Shown: one piece after another, positions 4,210-56,608 of the stretch | Layout: every line of letters starts with the position of its first letter | How positions within the stretch are numbered: the first letter of the stretch is position 1 | NCBI RefSeq assembly: GCF_006345805.1 | Contig: NC_043004.1 | Location: forward strand, 59,148,001-59,212,000 | DNA from: Octopus sinensis | Lineage: Eukaryota | Direction: 5' to 3' | DNA length: 64,000 nucleotides | Made by a program: the position numbers and the translations under genes | The notes under the pieces: generated by a model | Seen by the model: the letters and a program-made list of their open reading frames with translations, nothing else | Told to the model about the DNA's origin: nothing | Database searches by the model: none

Positions 4210-4975
4210 ATATATATATATACATATACATACATACACACAAATATATGTATATATAGTATATCACGATCTTTCGCTTGTCACTGGAGCTCAACAGTCA
4301 TAAAAAAAGCACAACATTCCTCTATAAAGAACAACAGATAGATAAATAAATAAATCTAAATAGAAAATATAATTATAGGTAAGGAAATCAAGTGAAAGCA
4401 GAGAATACAACTTGTGGAGCTTCACTTGATTGCAGTATTCTTTGTTGTTGCTGCCTTTTTTTTTTATCCAGTTAAGATCTCCCACAAGAAATTCTCATCA
4501 GTGTCAGATGCACGTCAGAGTTCTGTGACATTCTAATCAAAACGAGTTATGCATAATGGTTTTAAGTTATCTATTTTTTTCCCTGATATATTTGTATCTA
4601 TAGCTTTTTTTCTTCTCCTCCAGTATAACTTATATAAGAAGGATTTAAAAAAGACGTTTACTCTAGCGCTTCTTTTCTTGCTAAAATCTTGTGATTGCGA
4701 GCCAATACTTGTAGTTAATCATGGTGGGTATAAACTGTAAAGCAAGTCAATTAAACAATATTACTAGAATGTTGAGTATGAACAAATTGCATTAGTATTA
4801 TCAGCGAATACGTTAGTGGGAAACATGACTGAGAATGCTTCCTGTTGCCTCTGCTGAGAAACAGAACACAACTATCAGAGTATAGTAGTGAAATTGAATA
4901 AAAAACATCAAAATAACGCACATTATTTACATTATTTACATTCGTGGGATATTTGTTCTCATCTTGTTTGTCGTT

Positions 4976-5021
4976 AACACTACGTTTCGACTGATATACC
5001 CTCCAACATTCTTCAGGTGTC
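4976..5021 (-). ncRNA. type I minimal hammerhead ribozyme, stem II degenerate
   Basis: GACAC-CTGAAGA-A-TGTTG..CAGTC-GAA-ACGT-A-GTGTT. Stem I is GACAC/GTGTT and stem III is the palindrome ACGT. Sister copies at 5349-5394 and 8301-8341. Confidence 0.65.
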
Positions 5022-5076
5022 TTGGGGAAATTTCGAACCTGATTTTTCATTCCTAAAGTATTTTTCGATGTTATTA

Positions 5077-5137
<61 letters not shown>

Positions 5138-5154
5138 CATTATTATTATTATTG

Positions 5155-5231
5155 TTCAGGTCATTGCTTGGAATCGAACTCGGAATCTTGTGGTTAGTAA
5201 CCCGCGCTCTTAACAACTACGCCATATGCCC
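5155..5231 (-). promoter_or_regulatory. tRNA-derived segment with Pol III A and B boxes (not a functional tRNA)
   Basis: - strand reads GGGCATATGGCGTAGTTGTTAAGAGCGCGGGTTACTAACCACAAGATTCCGAGTTCGATTCC. A box TGGCGTAGT(T/G)G, B box GAGTTCGATTCC, imperfect acceptor and anticodon stems. Confidence 0.75.
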
Positions 5232-5558
5232 AAGTCATATGGCGTAGTGGTGAAGAAAGAAAACAACAACAACAACAATAATAATAATAATAATAACAAC
5301 ATCGAAAAATACCTTAGGAATGAGAACCCAGATTCAAAATTTCCTCACGATACCTGAAAAACGCTGGAGGGTATATCAACCGAAACGCTGTGTTAACAAT
5401 AAACAAGATGATAAATATCCGTCGAATGTAAATAATGTAAATAATGTACATAATTCCTCATCTCTTCAATACAGAACTGTATCAAAAAGAACAATAAAAT
5501 ACAACAAGAGGACGGGCACACAAAATATATGAGATTGTCGCTCTGTATATATAGAGAG

Positions 5559-7811: not shown

Positions 7812-8297
7812 TAAATAATGAGGGTGATAAATTGAATATTAATTTAATTAACATCAATTTAAAACTAGTAGCCTAAGCATATAGAAAAATCTGAAAATTC
7901 AGGAAAATTGTAATACATGCGTATAATAAGGGATGACCACTAAGTGGACATCCCATATGATAGAAGAAGATCATCTACGATCTAACTACAAAGAAAAGAA
8001 TGCTCTCTTGAGAAATTCAGCAAACTCCCGAACAAAAGCGGGTAAGACAGATGAAAATATACAAAATAAAGAATTAATCGTACACCGGTTTCGTCATTAA
8101 CAATATTTACTTACGCAATTCTCGTCCGTGGATTCTTTTGTACGATCGTTCCAATTCAATATAATTTATAGAAGTATACACGAGTTGTCCTCATAAAATT
8201 AGACGTGTGCTCATAAATTTAGATGTGTCTAATTTTATGAGGACAACTCGTGTATAGTTCTATAAATTACGTTGAATTGGAACGATCGTACTAAAGA
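7812..8297 (-). mobile_element. Penelope-like pseudo-LTR relic ending in a fold-back hairpin
   Basis: 7818-7880 (reverse complement) resembles 9100-9165. Degenerate HHR on - (CGGACGA...GAAACCGGT, ~8075-8130). Inverted arms at 8134-8204 and 8227-8297. Confidence 0.6.
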
Positions 8298-8300
8298 GCC

Positions 8301-8432
8301 CTGATGAAGGCTGGAGGGTATATCAGCCGAATCGTTGTGTTAACAACAAACAAGATGAGCAGAAATATCCGTCAAATGTAAATAATGTAAATAATGTACA
8401 TAATTCCTCATCTCTTAAATATAGAACTGTAT
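8301..8432 (+). mobile_element. 3' part of the tRNA-head/hammerhead module, starting at the HHR core
   Basis: CTGATGA-A-GGCTG-GAGGGTATAT-CAGCC-GAAT-CGTT-GTGTT, followed by the same tail as 5395-5480 (aacaaacaagatgag...atgtaaataatgtaaataatgtacataattcctcatctc). Confidence 0.8.
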
Positions 8433-8474
8433 TTCACACACACACACACACATACACACACACACATATATATA

Positions 8475-9924: not shown

Positions 9925-10320
9925 GTCACTGAAATCGACTACGGCGACCAAGAGAAAGCATTTACTTTATTACTTCAATTGGATGAAAGGTAATGTCGAT
10001 CTGGGTTAAATTTGAACGCAGAACGTAAAGACGGGCGAATTACCACTTAGCATTATACCTACCGCGCTAAAAATTTAGTCAGCTCACCGCCTCGCTTATA
10101 GGAATATAATGTTATTATATGTTGGCTCAAGGCCAGCAATTTCGGGAGAGGGATCAAATCGTTTACATCGACCTCAGTGTTCAACTTGTGTCTGTTTTAT
10201 CGTTCCCGATGGCATGAAAGGCAAAGTCGACCACGACTCAATTTGAACTCTCAATGTTAAGACGGCGAAATGCCGCTAAGCATTCTATCCAGTGTGCTAA
10301 TGATTCTGCCACTTCACTAC
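9925..10320 (-). mobile_element. two degenerate SINE family A copies
   Basis: Reverse-complement motifs gatgaaagg..aagtcgac..atttgaactc..aatgccgctaagcatt..gattctgcca. Confidence 0.8.
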
Positions 10321-10321
10321 C

Positions 10322-11550
10322 TTGCTTGACCAACTTACTAGTAATGGAAGAATTGGTGACGCGCATCCTCGATGATAGTGATGCTGTTGACATCGTTTTA
10401 TTGGACTTTGCCAAAGCTTTTGACTCGGTAAACCACCGCCTATTACTTGTCAAGCTTCAAGCATATAGTTTCCATCCGGATATTGTACGATGGGTTGGTG
10501 CCTTCCTCTCAGATCGCTCCTTCCAAGTCCAAGTTAATGGCTCGCGGTCCGACGTCTCCAGTGCGAGCAGTGGCGTGCCTCAAGGTTCAGTGCTTGGGCC
10601 CTTGTAGTTCTTAGTCTTCATAAATGACTTGCCCGACGACCTCACGCAACACACCCTTCTATTTGCCGACGATATCAAACTGGTCGCTCCTCGCGGTAAT
10701 ATAGAGGATCTTCGTCGATGCCTCCACCAAATTTGGAAGTGGTCTAACGATTGGGACCTGTGTCTGAACGTGTCAAAGTGCTGTCATCTGCCTGTCGGCT
10801 CTACTCCTGCAACTCAACTTGATTTCGAGCCGGGTCGTCTGCTGCTGGAGAGGACCGATCAAGTAAAGGACCTGGGTATCTTGGTGGATTCCTCCTTTTC
10901 GCCTTCAGCCCAGTGCATCCATGCTGCCAACAAAGCACGCGGAATTCTGTTCATGATTCGACGGTCATTCGGAATGCTCACCGCAGCCATATTCCTACCA
11001 CTCTATGTCACGCTGGTGAGACCCATATTGGAGTATGGGATTCAAGCCTCTTCTCCGTATCTCCTCAAAGACATACATCATCTCGAAAGAGTTCAGAAGC
11101 TGGCTACCCGCATGGTTCATGGTCTCAATAATTTGTCCTACGAAGAAAGGCTGAGGACGCTCGACCTTTATTCTCTTGAAAAACACCGCCGCCGTGGTGA
11201 TCTCATTCTCGCCCACAACATCATAAGCGGAAAGTGTAACCTCTCGAAAGAGCTGTTCTTCACTCCTGCTCCAGAGCGTCGGCTGCGGGGTCATTCCGAA
11301 AAGCTCTACCTGCGACGATTTCATCTCAATCGAAGGAGAGGAGCTTTCTCCGTCCGGGTTGCGGATCCGTGGAACAAGCTGCCAGACGAGATGGTGAAGA
11401 TGCCGACGACCGCTTTGTTCAAAGCCTCCCTGGACCTCAAGTGGCCTGAACTCTTTACATGAACACCACCCTGTACTTAACTCCATGTCTCCCTACATGG
11501 CCTTGCTATTTGCTTTTGAGCCAAATTAATTAACTAACTAACTAACTAAC
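10322..11550 (+). pseudogene. 5'-truncated CR1-group LINE: reverse transcriptase and C-terminus, 3' UTR with (AACT)n tail
   Basis: Motifs CLTNLL, LDFAKAFDSV, SGVPQGSVLGP, LFADDIKL, RPILEY, LERVQ, RRRGDLI. One in-frame stop at 10605-10607. Tail taactaactaactaac. Confidence 0.93.
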
Positions 11551-21303: not shown

Positions 21304-21376
<73 letters not shown>

Positions 21377-21380
<4 letters not shown>

Positions 21381-23158
21381 TAATAACTCTGCGAAACTTC
21401 TTGACTGTAAGTATGAGATCATGGAGAACCACACTAACTCTGAACAGTGACAGTGAATCCCTAAATGCTGGTGATGTAAAAATTTCGTGTGGCATTTTCC
21501 AGGGTGACTCACTGTCACCACTCCTCTTTTGTTTATCCTTAATACCTCTCTCAAAGCTGCTCAATGACGCGCAGTACGGGTATAAAATGTTTGATAAAAA
21601 TATAAATCATCTCGTTTACATGGATGATTTAAAGCTTTTTGCAAAAAATGATCAACTCAAGGGCTTACTAGCGATAGTCAAACAATTCAGTGACGACATC
21701 AGAATGCAATTCGGCCTCGATAAATGTGCAAAGGCTACCTTTATCAAAGGAAAAATGACAGAAACATCTAACGTTAACCTTGACCAACAGAATGTCATAA
21801 AAGAACTAGACCCAGCGGAGAGCTACAAGTACCTAGGGGTAATTGAAGGGAACGGAATAAGGCATTCAGAGATGAAGGAAAGGATCAGGAGAGAATGCTA
21901 TCGAAGAGTGAGAGCAATACTCAAGACAGAGCTGAATGCAAGAAACAGGATCGAAGCAATCAATGCATTAGCTATACCAGTCGTGACTTACAGTTTCAAT
22001 ATTGTTAACTGGTCAATTACTGAAAAATGTCAGCTCGACAGAAAAATAAGGAAACTGTTAACAATGCATAGAATGCACCACCCTAAGGCAGATACAGAAC
22101 GACTCTATCTGCCAAGAAAAGAGGGAGGCCGTGGTCTTTTGCAACTGGCAATAACAATGAAGATTGCTACAATTGGCCTAGACACCTACCTGAAAAACTC
22201 TGAGGACTGGATGTTAAAACTTGTCTCAAAACATGAAAACAAGAAAGCATCATACTCAGTCACAAAACAGGCAAAGGAATATCTAAGTGAATTCCGAATA
22301 CAACCAATTTCGGAATTAGAGATAGATATACAAGAAACAAGCACAGAAAAAGCTAGGCGCATGAAAACCCGTGCCAAAACTGCGGCCTTAGATATTCTGA
22401 ATAATAAATGGCAAGAAAAACCTCTCTATGGCAAATACCCAAAGAGAGCGAATAATGCAGATATCGACAAAGCCCTGACCCATCAATGGCTAATGGCCTC
22501 TGGCTTAAAATCTGAAACAGAGGGGTTTATCATAGCAGCTCAAGATCAATGCCTACCAACAAGAAACTACCAGGCCAACATATTAAAGATCAGAAGCAGT
22601 CCAACGTGTCGTGTATGCAAGCAACAAAATGAAACCATTGACCATGTGGTCTCCAAGTGCAGTCTTCTAGCGCCTACAGAGTATCTCAACGATAGAGCTG
22701 CACAATATATTCACTGGGTAATCTGTAAAAACCTGGATTTGCCCCATGAAAAAAACTGGTGGGAACACAAACCATCCCCAGTCCTTGAAAATGACCACAT
22801 CTCACTCCTCTGGAACTTCACCATTCAAACTGACAGGAAGATAGATGCAAATAGGCCAGACATCATATTGAAAGACTTCAAACAAAGAACATGCCTCCTC
22901 ATTGATATGACTGTCCCAATCGATATAAAGACCTACCAAAAACTGAGCAAATATAAAGATCTTGAAATAGAAATCAGCAAAATGTGGAAGCTGAAGACTA
23001 AAACAATACCTGTTGTCATAGGTGCCCTGGGAATGATAGCAAAAGGGGCTGATAGCTACCTAACTCAGATACCAGGAAACCCAAAAATGGCAGAAGTTCA
23101 ACAAAAGATAGTGCTCATGGGAACTGCTCATATCCTACGCAAAATACTCTCTATGTAA
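21377..23158 (+). CDS. R4/Dong-type non-LTR retrotransposon ORF (5'-truncated): RT, CCHC knuckle and restriction-like endonuclease
   Basis: GIFQGDSLSP, YMDDLK, YKYLG, GGRGL, CRVCKQQNETIDHVVSKC, RPDIILKD...IDMTVP...KLSKYKDL, PVVIGALG. The ATG is supplied by the flanking (ATA)n. Confidence 0.93.
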
Positions 23159-28624: not shown

Positions 28625-29070
28625 ATCACTTTGATCACTTTGACCGACCAGTCCGTCAGGCGTCCGTTTGACACCGCTCGTCACGGCACGCTGTCCACTC
28701 CTCTCTGGATCGCGCCTTTCTCATCCACGTGATCCCAATCGTCCTCCTGAAATCGTTACTCCACCGTCGTGGAGGTCTTCCGGGTAGTCTTTTCCGCTCA
28801 CGCGGGTACCACTCGACAACTGCATGTGTCCATCGATTATCGGTGAGCCGGCCGACGTGTCCAGCCCATCTATACTTGCTGCGTGTATACTCTGCGATGA
28901 CATCTCTCACGCCTGATTTCTTTCTGATGATCTTGCTACTTATGGGCTCTCTCAACGAGATACCAAGCATTGACCTTTCCATGGCTCTTTGAGCCGTTAC
29001 CAGTCTTTGCTCTTCTCTCTTTGTGGTAGCCCATGTTTCACTACCATATAACATTGCAGGCAGAACTGCA
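28625..29070 (-). pseudogene. RTE-clade LINE 3' fragment
   Basis: LPAMLYGSETW...QRAMERSMLG...KYRWAGHVGR..DNRWT..VVEWYPR..KR.PGRP..RW; short repeat tail (aaagtgat)x2. Confidence 0.9.
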
Positions 29071-29078
29071 TATATATT

Positions 29079-29286
29079 TATATATTAGAAGAAATAAGGT
29101 ACTCAGAAATCTGAATGGCTTTATATTTACAGATATTTATTAATATGCCACATGTTTTTATAAATTATATATATCATATATATTAGTGCTTGCGTCCACT
29201 CTATTGGAGTCGTCAGACATATTAATAAATATCTGTAAATATAAAACCATCCAGATTTCTGAGTACATTATTTCTTCTAATATATA
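29079..29286. repeat. fold-back repeat (69-bp arms, 70-nt spacer) at the 3' side of the PLE relic
   Basis: 29079-29147 is the near reverse complement of 29218-29286. The spacer carries ATGT-CTGACGA on -. Confidence 0.8.
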
Positions 29287-29353
29287 ATACCTGTACATCA
29301 TCTCCAAACCTACGCCATATGCCCGTGGACAATTATGGTATGAATTTTAGGGT

Positions 29354-30470
29354 TTATAAGTCTAATATTTTTCTATCCTTCCTTAATATCGGTTCCCATA
29401 TGCTATTCATATCTGCACTCGATCTGCTTAAGAGATTATTATGTACTAGCATATGTTCTGCCTCTTTTAGTTTTCGTATTTTCCATCGCTGTTCTCTGTC
29501 TATTATTTTAACTTCATCCCACAGGAGGAGGTGGTCTCCGTTTTTCCATACATGATCAGCTATACCCGATTTATCATTAACTCTTCATGTCACAGCTATG
29601 CGATGTTCCTCTACCCATATTTTGAGGCATGTTTCACCTTTGTATAACCTACCACAGCTGCATGGGATGGAGTACACGCAGTCTTTGGTCATATTCTCTT
29701 CTGTTGGTGGTTTTACTCGAATGAGATATTTGCTAAGTGTTGTATTACTCTTGAATACTGTCCTGATGTCATATGGGCCGCATGTCTTTTGTATCTTTTC
29801 GGAGAGGATTTTCACATAGGATAGACAGACTGTAGTCAGTTTATGGGTTTCACCCTCTCTTTATAATTGGAGTGGGTAGTATGTTTTGGGGGCAGTTGTT
29901 GCTTAATAGATTGTTACTTAGCCTGATCATTTCTTTGTGGTGTGTATCAAGATCGTTACCTATAATCTTTGTTCAGTGTTTTAGGCACTGAGCAATCCAT
30001 CTCTTTACTCTGTATGGATGGTGGGAACTGAAGTTGAGGTATCGTCCAGTGAAGATTGGCTTGCAGTATACAGGTGTCCTGAATCCATACTTGGTTTGTG
30101 TTATTAATACGTCCAGTAACGCTAGCCGATCGTCTTTTTGTTCCCATTGTGAAATGCATGGATGGCTTTATTCAGTTCACATGACCTGACAGTACTTGGG
30201 CATCTTCCTGGTGGAGCCAGTGTATAAAGGTGTCATCAACATATCGCAGTCATAGGGTTTGTTTTACTGGTGTTGATCCTAAAGCCAAATTCTCAAAGTA
30301 TTCCATATATATATTGGCTATTATCGGTGATAATGGCGAACCCATAAAGAAACCCTCCAACTGTCGATAAAGAAACCCTCTATCAGCGTCCATGCTGAAG
30401 TAGGTAGTTTCGACACAGATGGTCAAAATTTCCATCAAGTTTCCTATCGGTGCACTAGTGCGCTCTGAGG
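29354..30470 (-). pseudogene. Penelope-like element ORF relic: RT and GIY-YIG endonuclease
   Basis: YRQLEGFFMGSPLSPIIANIYMEYFE, LRYVDDTF, HFTM, VYSIPCSCGRLYKGET..EEH, SGIADH, RKLKEA, WEPILRK...* (stop 29354-29356). Several stops and frameshifts. Confidence 0.9.
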
Positions 30471-55369: not shown

Positions 55370-56608
55370 CGTTGGCAAAAAATAAGCTCCCACCATTTGA
55401 TTTAAAATTTGGGAATTTATTACGTTTTTAAATTTTGGAATCTGTTTATTTTTCTAGTTAATTTTGTTTATTTTCGGATCATTAAAATGGAATGCCAAGT
55501 TAAGAAAAAGGAGCATTTTCAACACTTCCTTTTTGCTTTTAATCAAGGTTCTAAGGCCGCAAAAGCTACTCATGACATCTGTGCTGTGTATGGAGATGGT
55601 TCTATAGCTGAAAGAACCGCTCGTGATTGGTATGCCACGTTCTAAAATGAAAATTTTGAGCTCAAAGACGCACCTCGTACTGGCCGTTCAGCTGAGTTCG
55701 ATGAAGAACGATTGTACCAATTTTACACGAAAATTCTCGTCAAACTATAAGGGGACAGACAGAGAAAATAGAATGCTCCCACACTGCAATTGAGAAGCAT
55801 CTTCACTCGATGGGAAAGTTTCAGAAGTATGGAGCATGGGTTCAGCATGCTTTAAGTGACAACAACAAAAGTCAACGAGCCACAATCTCCGCTGGTTTGC
55901 TTGCTAGTCACCGCTCAACTCATGGACACAACCAGTGATTTCTTTACGGATCGTTACTGGCGACGAAAAATGGTGCATGTACATCAATATGAGGCAGCGT
56001 AAGGAATGGTTTAGCCCCGGTAAACAAGCGACACCGCGTGTGAAACAAGATCTTCATCCACGTAAAACGATGTTGTGCGTATGTTAGGACTGGGAAGGGA
56101 TTCTCCATTACGAATTGCTTAAACGGAACCAAACTGTCAACACGGAACTCTATGTTCCACAGATGAAACGACTCAGCACTGCTATTCAAAAGAAAAGACC
56201 CAATCGTCAGCATGGATTTCTTCTGCTGCACGACAACGCCCGCCCTCATATCTCCAATATGGCCATGAAAGCCATTCAGACGCATGGCTGGGAAATGCTG
56301 TCACGCCGGCTGTACTCTCCTGATTTGGCACCAATGGATTTCCACCTCTTTCGATCTCTTTCAAATGCTATACGTGGAGTTTCGTTGAATACTGATGCTG
56401 AATTGAGAGCTTGGTTGGATCAATTTTTCGAGTCGAAATCGTGTGATTTCTAAAAACGAGGTATTGAAAATCGTATTGAACGTTGGAAAGAAGTTGTAAA
56501 CAACAAGGGTGAATACATTATTGATTGTTATTTTTGTTGCTATTTTTTATTAAAACTTTTAAGACATTTAAATTAAAGAAAACAGCGGGAGCTTAGTTGT
56601 CAACCCAA
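55367..56608 (+). mobile_element. near full-length mariner (DD34D) transposon with inactivated transposase (ATG at 55487)
   Basis: TIRs ttgcgttggcaaaaaataagctccc / gggagcttagttgtcaacccaa with TA on both sides. Motifs WVQHAL, IVTGDEKW, HDNARPH, YSPDLAPMDFHLF; multiple stops and frameshifts. Confidence 0.95.

Follow-up and report, generated by a model that had tools for sequence, protein, structure and literature searches.

A tRNA-like head in the terminal repeat of an octopus Penelope-like retroelement as a candidate Pol III promoter

Poseidon of Anolis carolinensis, referred to as PAc, has a single ORF encoding a reverse transcriptase (RT) with a C-terminal GIY-YIG endonuclease, pseudo-LTRs (pLTRs) arising from tandem units, an ORF start that overlaps a hammerhead cut downstream of the AUG, and two 3' ends lying 30–40 nt apart within the 5' part of the ORF, according to the available sections of its description (Frangieh et al. 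2024, PMC11167929). All these features are shared by a Penelope-like element (PLE) of the octopus genome, called family A here. However, the AUG of family A lies 33 nt before the hammerhead core and is preceded by a 74-nt tRNA-like head and an (AAT)n tract, whereas the same sections on PAc describe no tRNA-like head or Pol III boxes (PMC11167929). The minimal hammerheads of metazoan PLEs, as presented in the accessible part of their description (Cervera and de la Pena 2014, PMC4209133), also resemble that of family A, being of type I, with a long helix II, a preceding unpaired base and a palindromic helix III, and occurring mostly singly or as pairs on opposite strands that stem from truncated copies; that text describes no tRNA-derived part. 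In Schistosoma, Sm-alpha and Sj-alpha have a Pol III promoter followed by a hammerhead, an order that family A would share, but they are non-coding tandem repeats in the excerpts available from a review (PMC6765202), whereas in family A the module serves as terminal repeat and ORF start within a coding element. Non-LTR retrozymes, in the excerpts available (bioRxiv 10.64898/2026.07.22.740005; PMC7229834), are ORF-less hammerhead elements derived from pLTRs, like the solo modules of family A. In those excerpts, retrozymes form head-to-tail repeats of a short hammerhead unit and are thought to be mobile via circles, whereas the family A solos are dispersed head-to-head pairs with 5' ends that mark the head rather than the hammerhead cut site.

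The last group for comparison is that of the tRNA-derived SINEs, of which Ohshima and Okada reportedly described octopus examples (OR1/OR2/OK) in 1994. Such SINEs, including those of octopus, resemble the family A solos in having a 5' tRNA-like head with A and B boxes and thousands of short copies. Family A is set apart from the octopus SINEs, on the descriptions of the latter, by a body that is the element's own ORF start, by two-armed insertion and by PLE tails. Its head is tRNA-related and contains both boxes, but it belongs to the unit of a coding element rather than to a separate non-autonomous family. The literature searched, which lay outside Repbase, Dfam and subscription papers, yielded no description of a tRNA head within a PLE pLTR; Repbase, Dfam or preprint supplements may already contain family A.

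The locus studied lies on the minus strand of a 64-kb stretch of Octopus sinensis DNA, referred to as the window. A broken RT/GIY-YIG ORF of family A, recognized by alignment to the family and by PF00078 in a sister copy, occupies positions 29354–30466; it is a 5'-truncated relic starting at 30466, with frameshifts and stops. The relic ends in ...WEPILRKDRKILDL followed by TAA (29356–29354), and a 29-nt spacer (29353–29325), the last 14 nt of which can form a weak hairpin with the initial 10 nt of the head, separates this stop from the first 15 nt of the tRNA-like head (29324–29310, with part of the A box). This 15-mer is identical to 5231–5217, and these are the only two exact matches within the window. 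The copy aligns to family A from 30466 to 29310 with 89.6% identity over 1170 columns, and the alignment ends at 29310, where the copy is cut by the edge of family B, an unrelated repeat of younger age (29078–29310). Family B has two inverted 70-nt arms, occupies the place of the module remainder and overlaps the head stub by 2 nt, a microhomology at the junction; it is 97–99% identical to many other places in the genome, most of them located in (TA)n. The remainder of the module was not found in the window beyond family B, and was therefore deleted. An earlier note on this DNA had described the stop codon, the gap, the 15-nt match and the truncation at 29310, all of which were reproduced; it had also spoken of an RT/GIY-YIG ORF, for which the stop position holds but an intact frame does not. 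Family B itself is young and contains a hammerhead-like core with GCAA in place of the usual GAAA; no coding partner for it was found.

The other copy of the 15-mer opens the complete head of an ORF-less copy on the minus strand (5158–5231), in which the A box (5224–5214) and the B box (5179–5171) were assigned by the box consensus. The head is followed by an (AAT)n tract (5071–5153), the length of which differs between copies, and by a stretch (4912–5070) containing the ORF start (ATG at 5050–5048), an in-frame minimal type-I hammerhead motif (5021–4976, with a predicted cut after 4981) and the tail. The inverted partner arm of the same insertion (5233–5482, plus strand) comprises a head stub, AAT, the hammerhead and a longer tail, and a further ORF-less fragment with hammerhead and tail lies at 8294–8433 (plus strand). 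Two similar ATG-led stretches are present in the module, at +123 and +219 (window 5050 and 4963, minus strand, for example); both read M-R-T in the family summary, in different frames, and they are possibly an old short duplication. Elsewhere in the window, a 617-residue open frame of an RT element, presumably R4/Dong-like, lies directly after an (AAT)n tract (21305–23158, plus strand), and there are fragments that we take to be CR1/L2-like (10218–11462, plus strand), RTE-like (28656–29084, minus strand) and mariner-like (55944–56453).

The 2.72-Gb assembly was searched for other copies. With window 29150–29500 as the query, 40 places were scored, and the best matches other than the window itself stop at or near query position 191, which corresponds to window 29310. 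The ORF end runs into the head in 29/29 other fetched loci, the hammerhead core being reached in 24, in a set that was chosen with a query containing the 15-mer; sets picked without the head were therefore also used. Selection by mid-ORF DNA gave 20 loci with 18 distinct ORF ends, and the head came next in 16 of these 18 and the hammerhead core in 12. Selection with a distant protein gave 30 loci with 21 distinct ORF ends, followed by the head in 19 and by the hammerhead core in 17. These two sets have a few loci in common, and 3 and 8 loci, respectively, have no ORF end. The four head-less ORF ends (2/18 and 2/21) still retain the spacer and have lost the head by deletion. Downstream of the ORF end the order is head, (AAT)n, minimal hammerhead and Penelope "tail". 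The bridge between ORF end and head is also present in contigs of runs labelled as organisms C, D and E, and no alternative 3' UTR was seen among the family A copies.

The same module also lies ahead of the ORF. In a search with the 5' part of the ORF, 11/30 loci had the hammerhead immediately before the ORF, in the same orientation and at a near-constant distance, and in three of these 11 the head was present as well; head, (AAT)n and hammerhead precede the ORF in L114, L118 and L121, and L113 has a hammerhead on both flanks of one ORF. The repeat unit reads ORF, stop, 29 nt, head, (AAT)n, ATG, in-frame hammerhead motif, tail and the rest of the next ORF. Because it directly precedes the ORF as well as following it, the module is the pLTR of a Penelope/Poseidon-type element. 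The continuations of other copies past the ORF end bear out the proposal, in the earlier note, of a 3' pLTR made of tRNA, (AAT)n and hammerhead, and the module was found ahead of the ORF as that note had predicted for tandem copies. Of the architecture that it had drawn (RT-GIY-YIG, tRNA promoter, ribozyme), the order stands, but the hammerhead lies inside the ORF start and not in a non-coding UTR.

A majority summary of family A was built from 43 fragments, and the copies are 85–95% identical to it. It contains a single 835-codon frame with its ATG inside the module, 33 nt ahead of the hammerhead core, such that the hammerhead motif is read through in the ORF frame. The N-terminus of the closest protein in the database can be aligned with the peptide that spans the hammerhead (44% over 131 residues, against 54% for the RT), and the reading frame through the hammerhead is therefore conserved. 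An intron in the tail with a later start codon was also considered and dropped, as the frame is open without splicing and encodes a peptide that aligns to the N-terminus of a relative; no splice joint of such an intron occurs among the RNA joints listed. No intact young copy was found among those compared with the summary, and family A may therefore be extinct.

PF00078 (RT) was detected in a natural copy (P0001), and the relatives have the same precomputed domain set. No Pfam match to the GIY-YIG endonuclease was obtained in P0002; the endonuclease was recognized by alignment to relatives, from invariant Y, C, G, R, R and H columns. As in PLEs with a C-terminal endonuclease (EN+), there is one ORF with RT followed by GIY-YIG, pLTRs derive from partial tandems, upstream of which lies a truncated copy in inverted orientation, and the optional tail of 30–40 nt is present at one end. 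Translations of family A contain the DKG motif and the CCHH motif in the endonuclease, and lack a CX2-5CxxC zinc finger between RT and endonuclease. The Penelope/Poseidon clade is defined by DKG, CCHH in the endonuclease and the lack of a linker zinc finger in the excerpts available from PMC8557442, and the predicted protein features of family A fit this clade. In a quick RT tree built without named reference elements, family A and P0003, its closest relative, were joined (SH-aLRT 99), apart from family C. The latter (L343:177-2528, L364, L365) is a Neptune-type PLE of the octopus genome that is young (99%) and organized in 4.4-kb tandem units, with an intact frame of 784 residues and a linker zinc finger; no B box was found in it.

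The hammerhead motif has the features of the minimal type-I form in both sequence and fold: the core CUGANGA...GAAA, helices I and II and a palindromic helix III. One dimorphic site of the core is the free N7 position. The monomer fold is no more stable than those of shuffled sequences and Rfam did not call the motif a hammerhead at its threshold; its identity as a ribozyme is a prediction from sequence. The 3' ends of 56 copies fall at +254..+261 in 8 cases and at +282..+296 in 47, one copy being longer, and the partner arms end mostly at +241..+260; the two groups of 3' ends, about 30–40 nt apart, represent the PLE tail. Hammerhead-cut RNA was rejected as the template, because no pile-up of copy 5' ends, or of read ends, was seen at the predicted cut (+192). 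This is in line with the use of mainly uncut RNA as the template by PAc, as stated in the available sections of PMC11167929.

The head aligns to host tRNAs with z values of 3.2–7.1, the best match being Arg(TCT) among the seven isotype groups compared, which are part of the host tRNA set. It retains the A and B boxes at tRNA spacing, whereas the anticodon and T stems are broken, and ARAGORN did not call it a tRNA at its threshold; its role as a tRNA-type promoter is predicted. T4 runs terminate Pol III, and of 28 host tRNA genes, 16 are followed by T4 as their first T run. The sense strand of the family A summary contains no T4 run at all. In the 835-codon majority ORF, this zero compares with 2.9 expected from a synonymous shuffle (P 0.027) and 4.6 from a third-position model (P 0.005), the deficit being that of one lineage, taken from the majority summary only, in a test devised post hoc. 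Decayed natural frames of family A, which are not independent of each other, have 31 T4 runs against 75 expected, whereas other long frames have 170 against 142. In the head-less family C, with the same T content, 6–7 are present and 5.3–5.6 expected, and in eight distant relatives 50 and 47.6. G4 runs are also absent from the majority ORF (0 against 1.0 expected, P 0.30). In a search for sister families, the best 30 genome matches of a distant relative were all family A; a metagenome scan with P0003 gave no matches, and one with P0001 gave eight distant loci, most of which do not extend far enough at the 3' side to be examined for a head.

Most copies in the genome are ORF-less, two-armed inverted inserts, the longer arm of which ends at the first bases of the head. 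Sixty 10-kb stretches taken at round coordinates as an arbitrary sample (600 kb) contained four module loci, all four of them ORF-less inverted pairs, corresponding to an estimate of about 18,000 loci genome-wide (95% range 5,000–46,000). The 5' end of an insertion, defined as the most upstream end of either arm, was tallied by hand for 58 loci chosen by hammerhead and tail only, with two query loci omitted and duplicates (L246, L250, L299) dropped to leave 55. These 55 distinct insertions divide into 26 with an end at -10..+8 of the head, 10 ending within the head, 15 ending further 3' and 4 ending in the ORF. Thus, among the 30 insertions that reach the head start, 26 stop within 18 nt, compared with 10/40 over the preceding 70 nt (Fisher p 2e-7). 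Of 29 loci selected by the head, 25 end at -8..+4, 10 of these at -7. Module copies about 10 kb apart (L298–L300, G000:C1:115.79-115.81 Mb), two of them with near-identical flanks, suggest a local tandem duplication.

The best explanation of the whole, to which we assign a probability of about 0.65, is that transcription of family A begins at a captured Pol III promoter of the tRNA type. Such a start would make 5' ends stop sharply a few bases ahead of the tRNA +1, and the ends observed show a limit of this kind; the continuation of the ORF end into the head, the presence of the module upstream of the ORF, the boxes kept although the stems are broken, and the T4 runs absent from the family A ORF but at the expected level in family C and the distant relatives also speak for this reading. 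The head was probably captured from a tRNA or a SINE into the 3' UTR and, in tandem copies, would also have come to lie in a promoter position. Pol III would start about 6–7 nt before the tRNA-equivalent +1, in the module upstream of the ORF. The element's RT would begin internally at the tail, at two sites (about +250 and +287, as in the anole Poseidon) and on both nicked strands. Begun at the first tail of the RNA, it would copy back only to the RNA 5' end, giving SINE-like solo modules; begun at the tail after the ORF, it would give 5'-truncated or full-length copies, such as that in the window. A short palindrome at the head edge probably joins the two arms. That Pol III transcribes the whole ORF is a more doubtful proposition, less likely than not. 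RNA made by Pol III is uncapped and poorly suited as mRNA, which counts against the Pol III start, as do the single, post hoc and summary-based nature of the T4 result, the parallel absence of G4, and the failure of ARAGORN and Rfam to call a tRNA or a hammerhead at their thresholds.

The sharp 5' limit coincides with the palindrome, and fold-back on a longer RNA could also cause the pile-up. The head would then be a passenger piece of a tRNA-derived SINE in the 3' UTR, transcription would be by Pol II, from an internal pLTR promoter or by read-through, and fold-back of the cDNA at the palindrome would make the ends. We consider this unlikely. The end of the spacer does pair with the head start, most junctions are fold-backs centred at -2/-1, and in the excerpts available from PMC8557442 the known promoter of Penelope lies within the pLTR and is accompanied by an intron. 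However, the hairpin is of low stability (-6.4 to -7.5 kcal/mol, with 16–25/200 shuffles folding equally well) and the RT gets past the hammerhead stem; six single-armed copies without an inverted partner (L245, L247, L251, L261, L280, L288) also end at the head edge, and the absence of T4 is left unexplained.

The RNA data, from three raw runs under another organism label, are unstranded, and no defined molecule starts or ends stood out in them, which is in keeping with the passenger piece; these runs neither favour nor contradict Pol III. Depth over the module is several hundred times that over the 5' part of the ORF, and the same holds in a contig run of unrecorded kind, but depth tracks copy abundance. 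A step in depth at the head, matching the limit of the genomic 5' ends, is present in the reads and contigs of four other runs, with loose ends piled at -4 and continuing as an inverted head. In run X21, about one third of the head depth extends to the ORF end (about 740 against 2200), which exceeds the 4/30 of the genomic sample and is a point against the Pol III start.

It is quite improbable, and partly compatible with the preferred Pol III start, that two tiers exist, with Pol II making the mRNA of the ORF, and the solo modules, as an independent "PLE-mobilised SINE", depending on Pol III transcription of solo masters and on copying in trans. The ORF-less copies are far more numerous than the ORF-linked ones (4/4 loci in 600 kb), the solos retain both boxes and lack T4, and S. 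mansoni has Pol III SINE-like hammerhead repeats in the excerpts of PMC6765202. However, both module variant types (sites +64, +161 and +230, read by eye) occur in ORF-linked copies and in solos, so that no solo-only lineage was seen. The solos also end at or before ORF nt 165, whereas the anole Poseidon requires template RNA past its RT start sites, to ORF nt 172, in the available sections of PMC11167929. There is virtually no chance that the 15-nt match is a coincidence or a one-off insertion, as the earlier note had allowed if other copies had a different 3' UTR: only its short length speaks for this, against an expectation from base composition of about 3e-5 in the window and a junction recurring in all 29 other copies fetched and in contigs of the three other labelled organisms.

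Pol III heads are a hallmark of non-coding SINEs, and here a putative one lies within the terminal repeat of a retroelement that encodes protein. The boundary between SINEs and autonomous elements is thereby blurred, and Penelope elements could have led directly to tRNA-headed hammerhead repeats like those of schistosomes. The transcription of Penelope elements is known in very few cases, and family A supplies a candidate promoter that can be tested. If Pol III does read the whole ORF, family A would be a natural case of a coding RNA made by Pol III. Some thousands of copies in the octopus genome, likely to be annotated as SINEs or tRNA pseudogenes, are the ends of Penelope elements.
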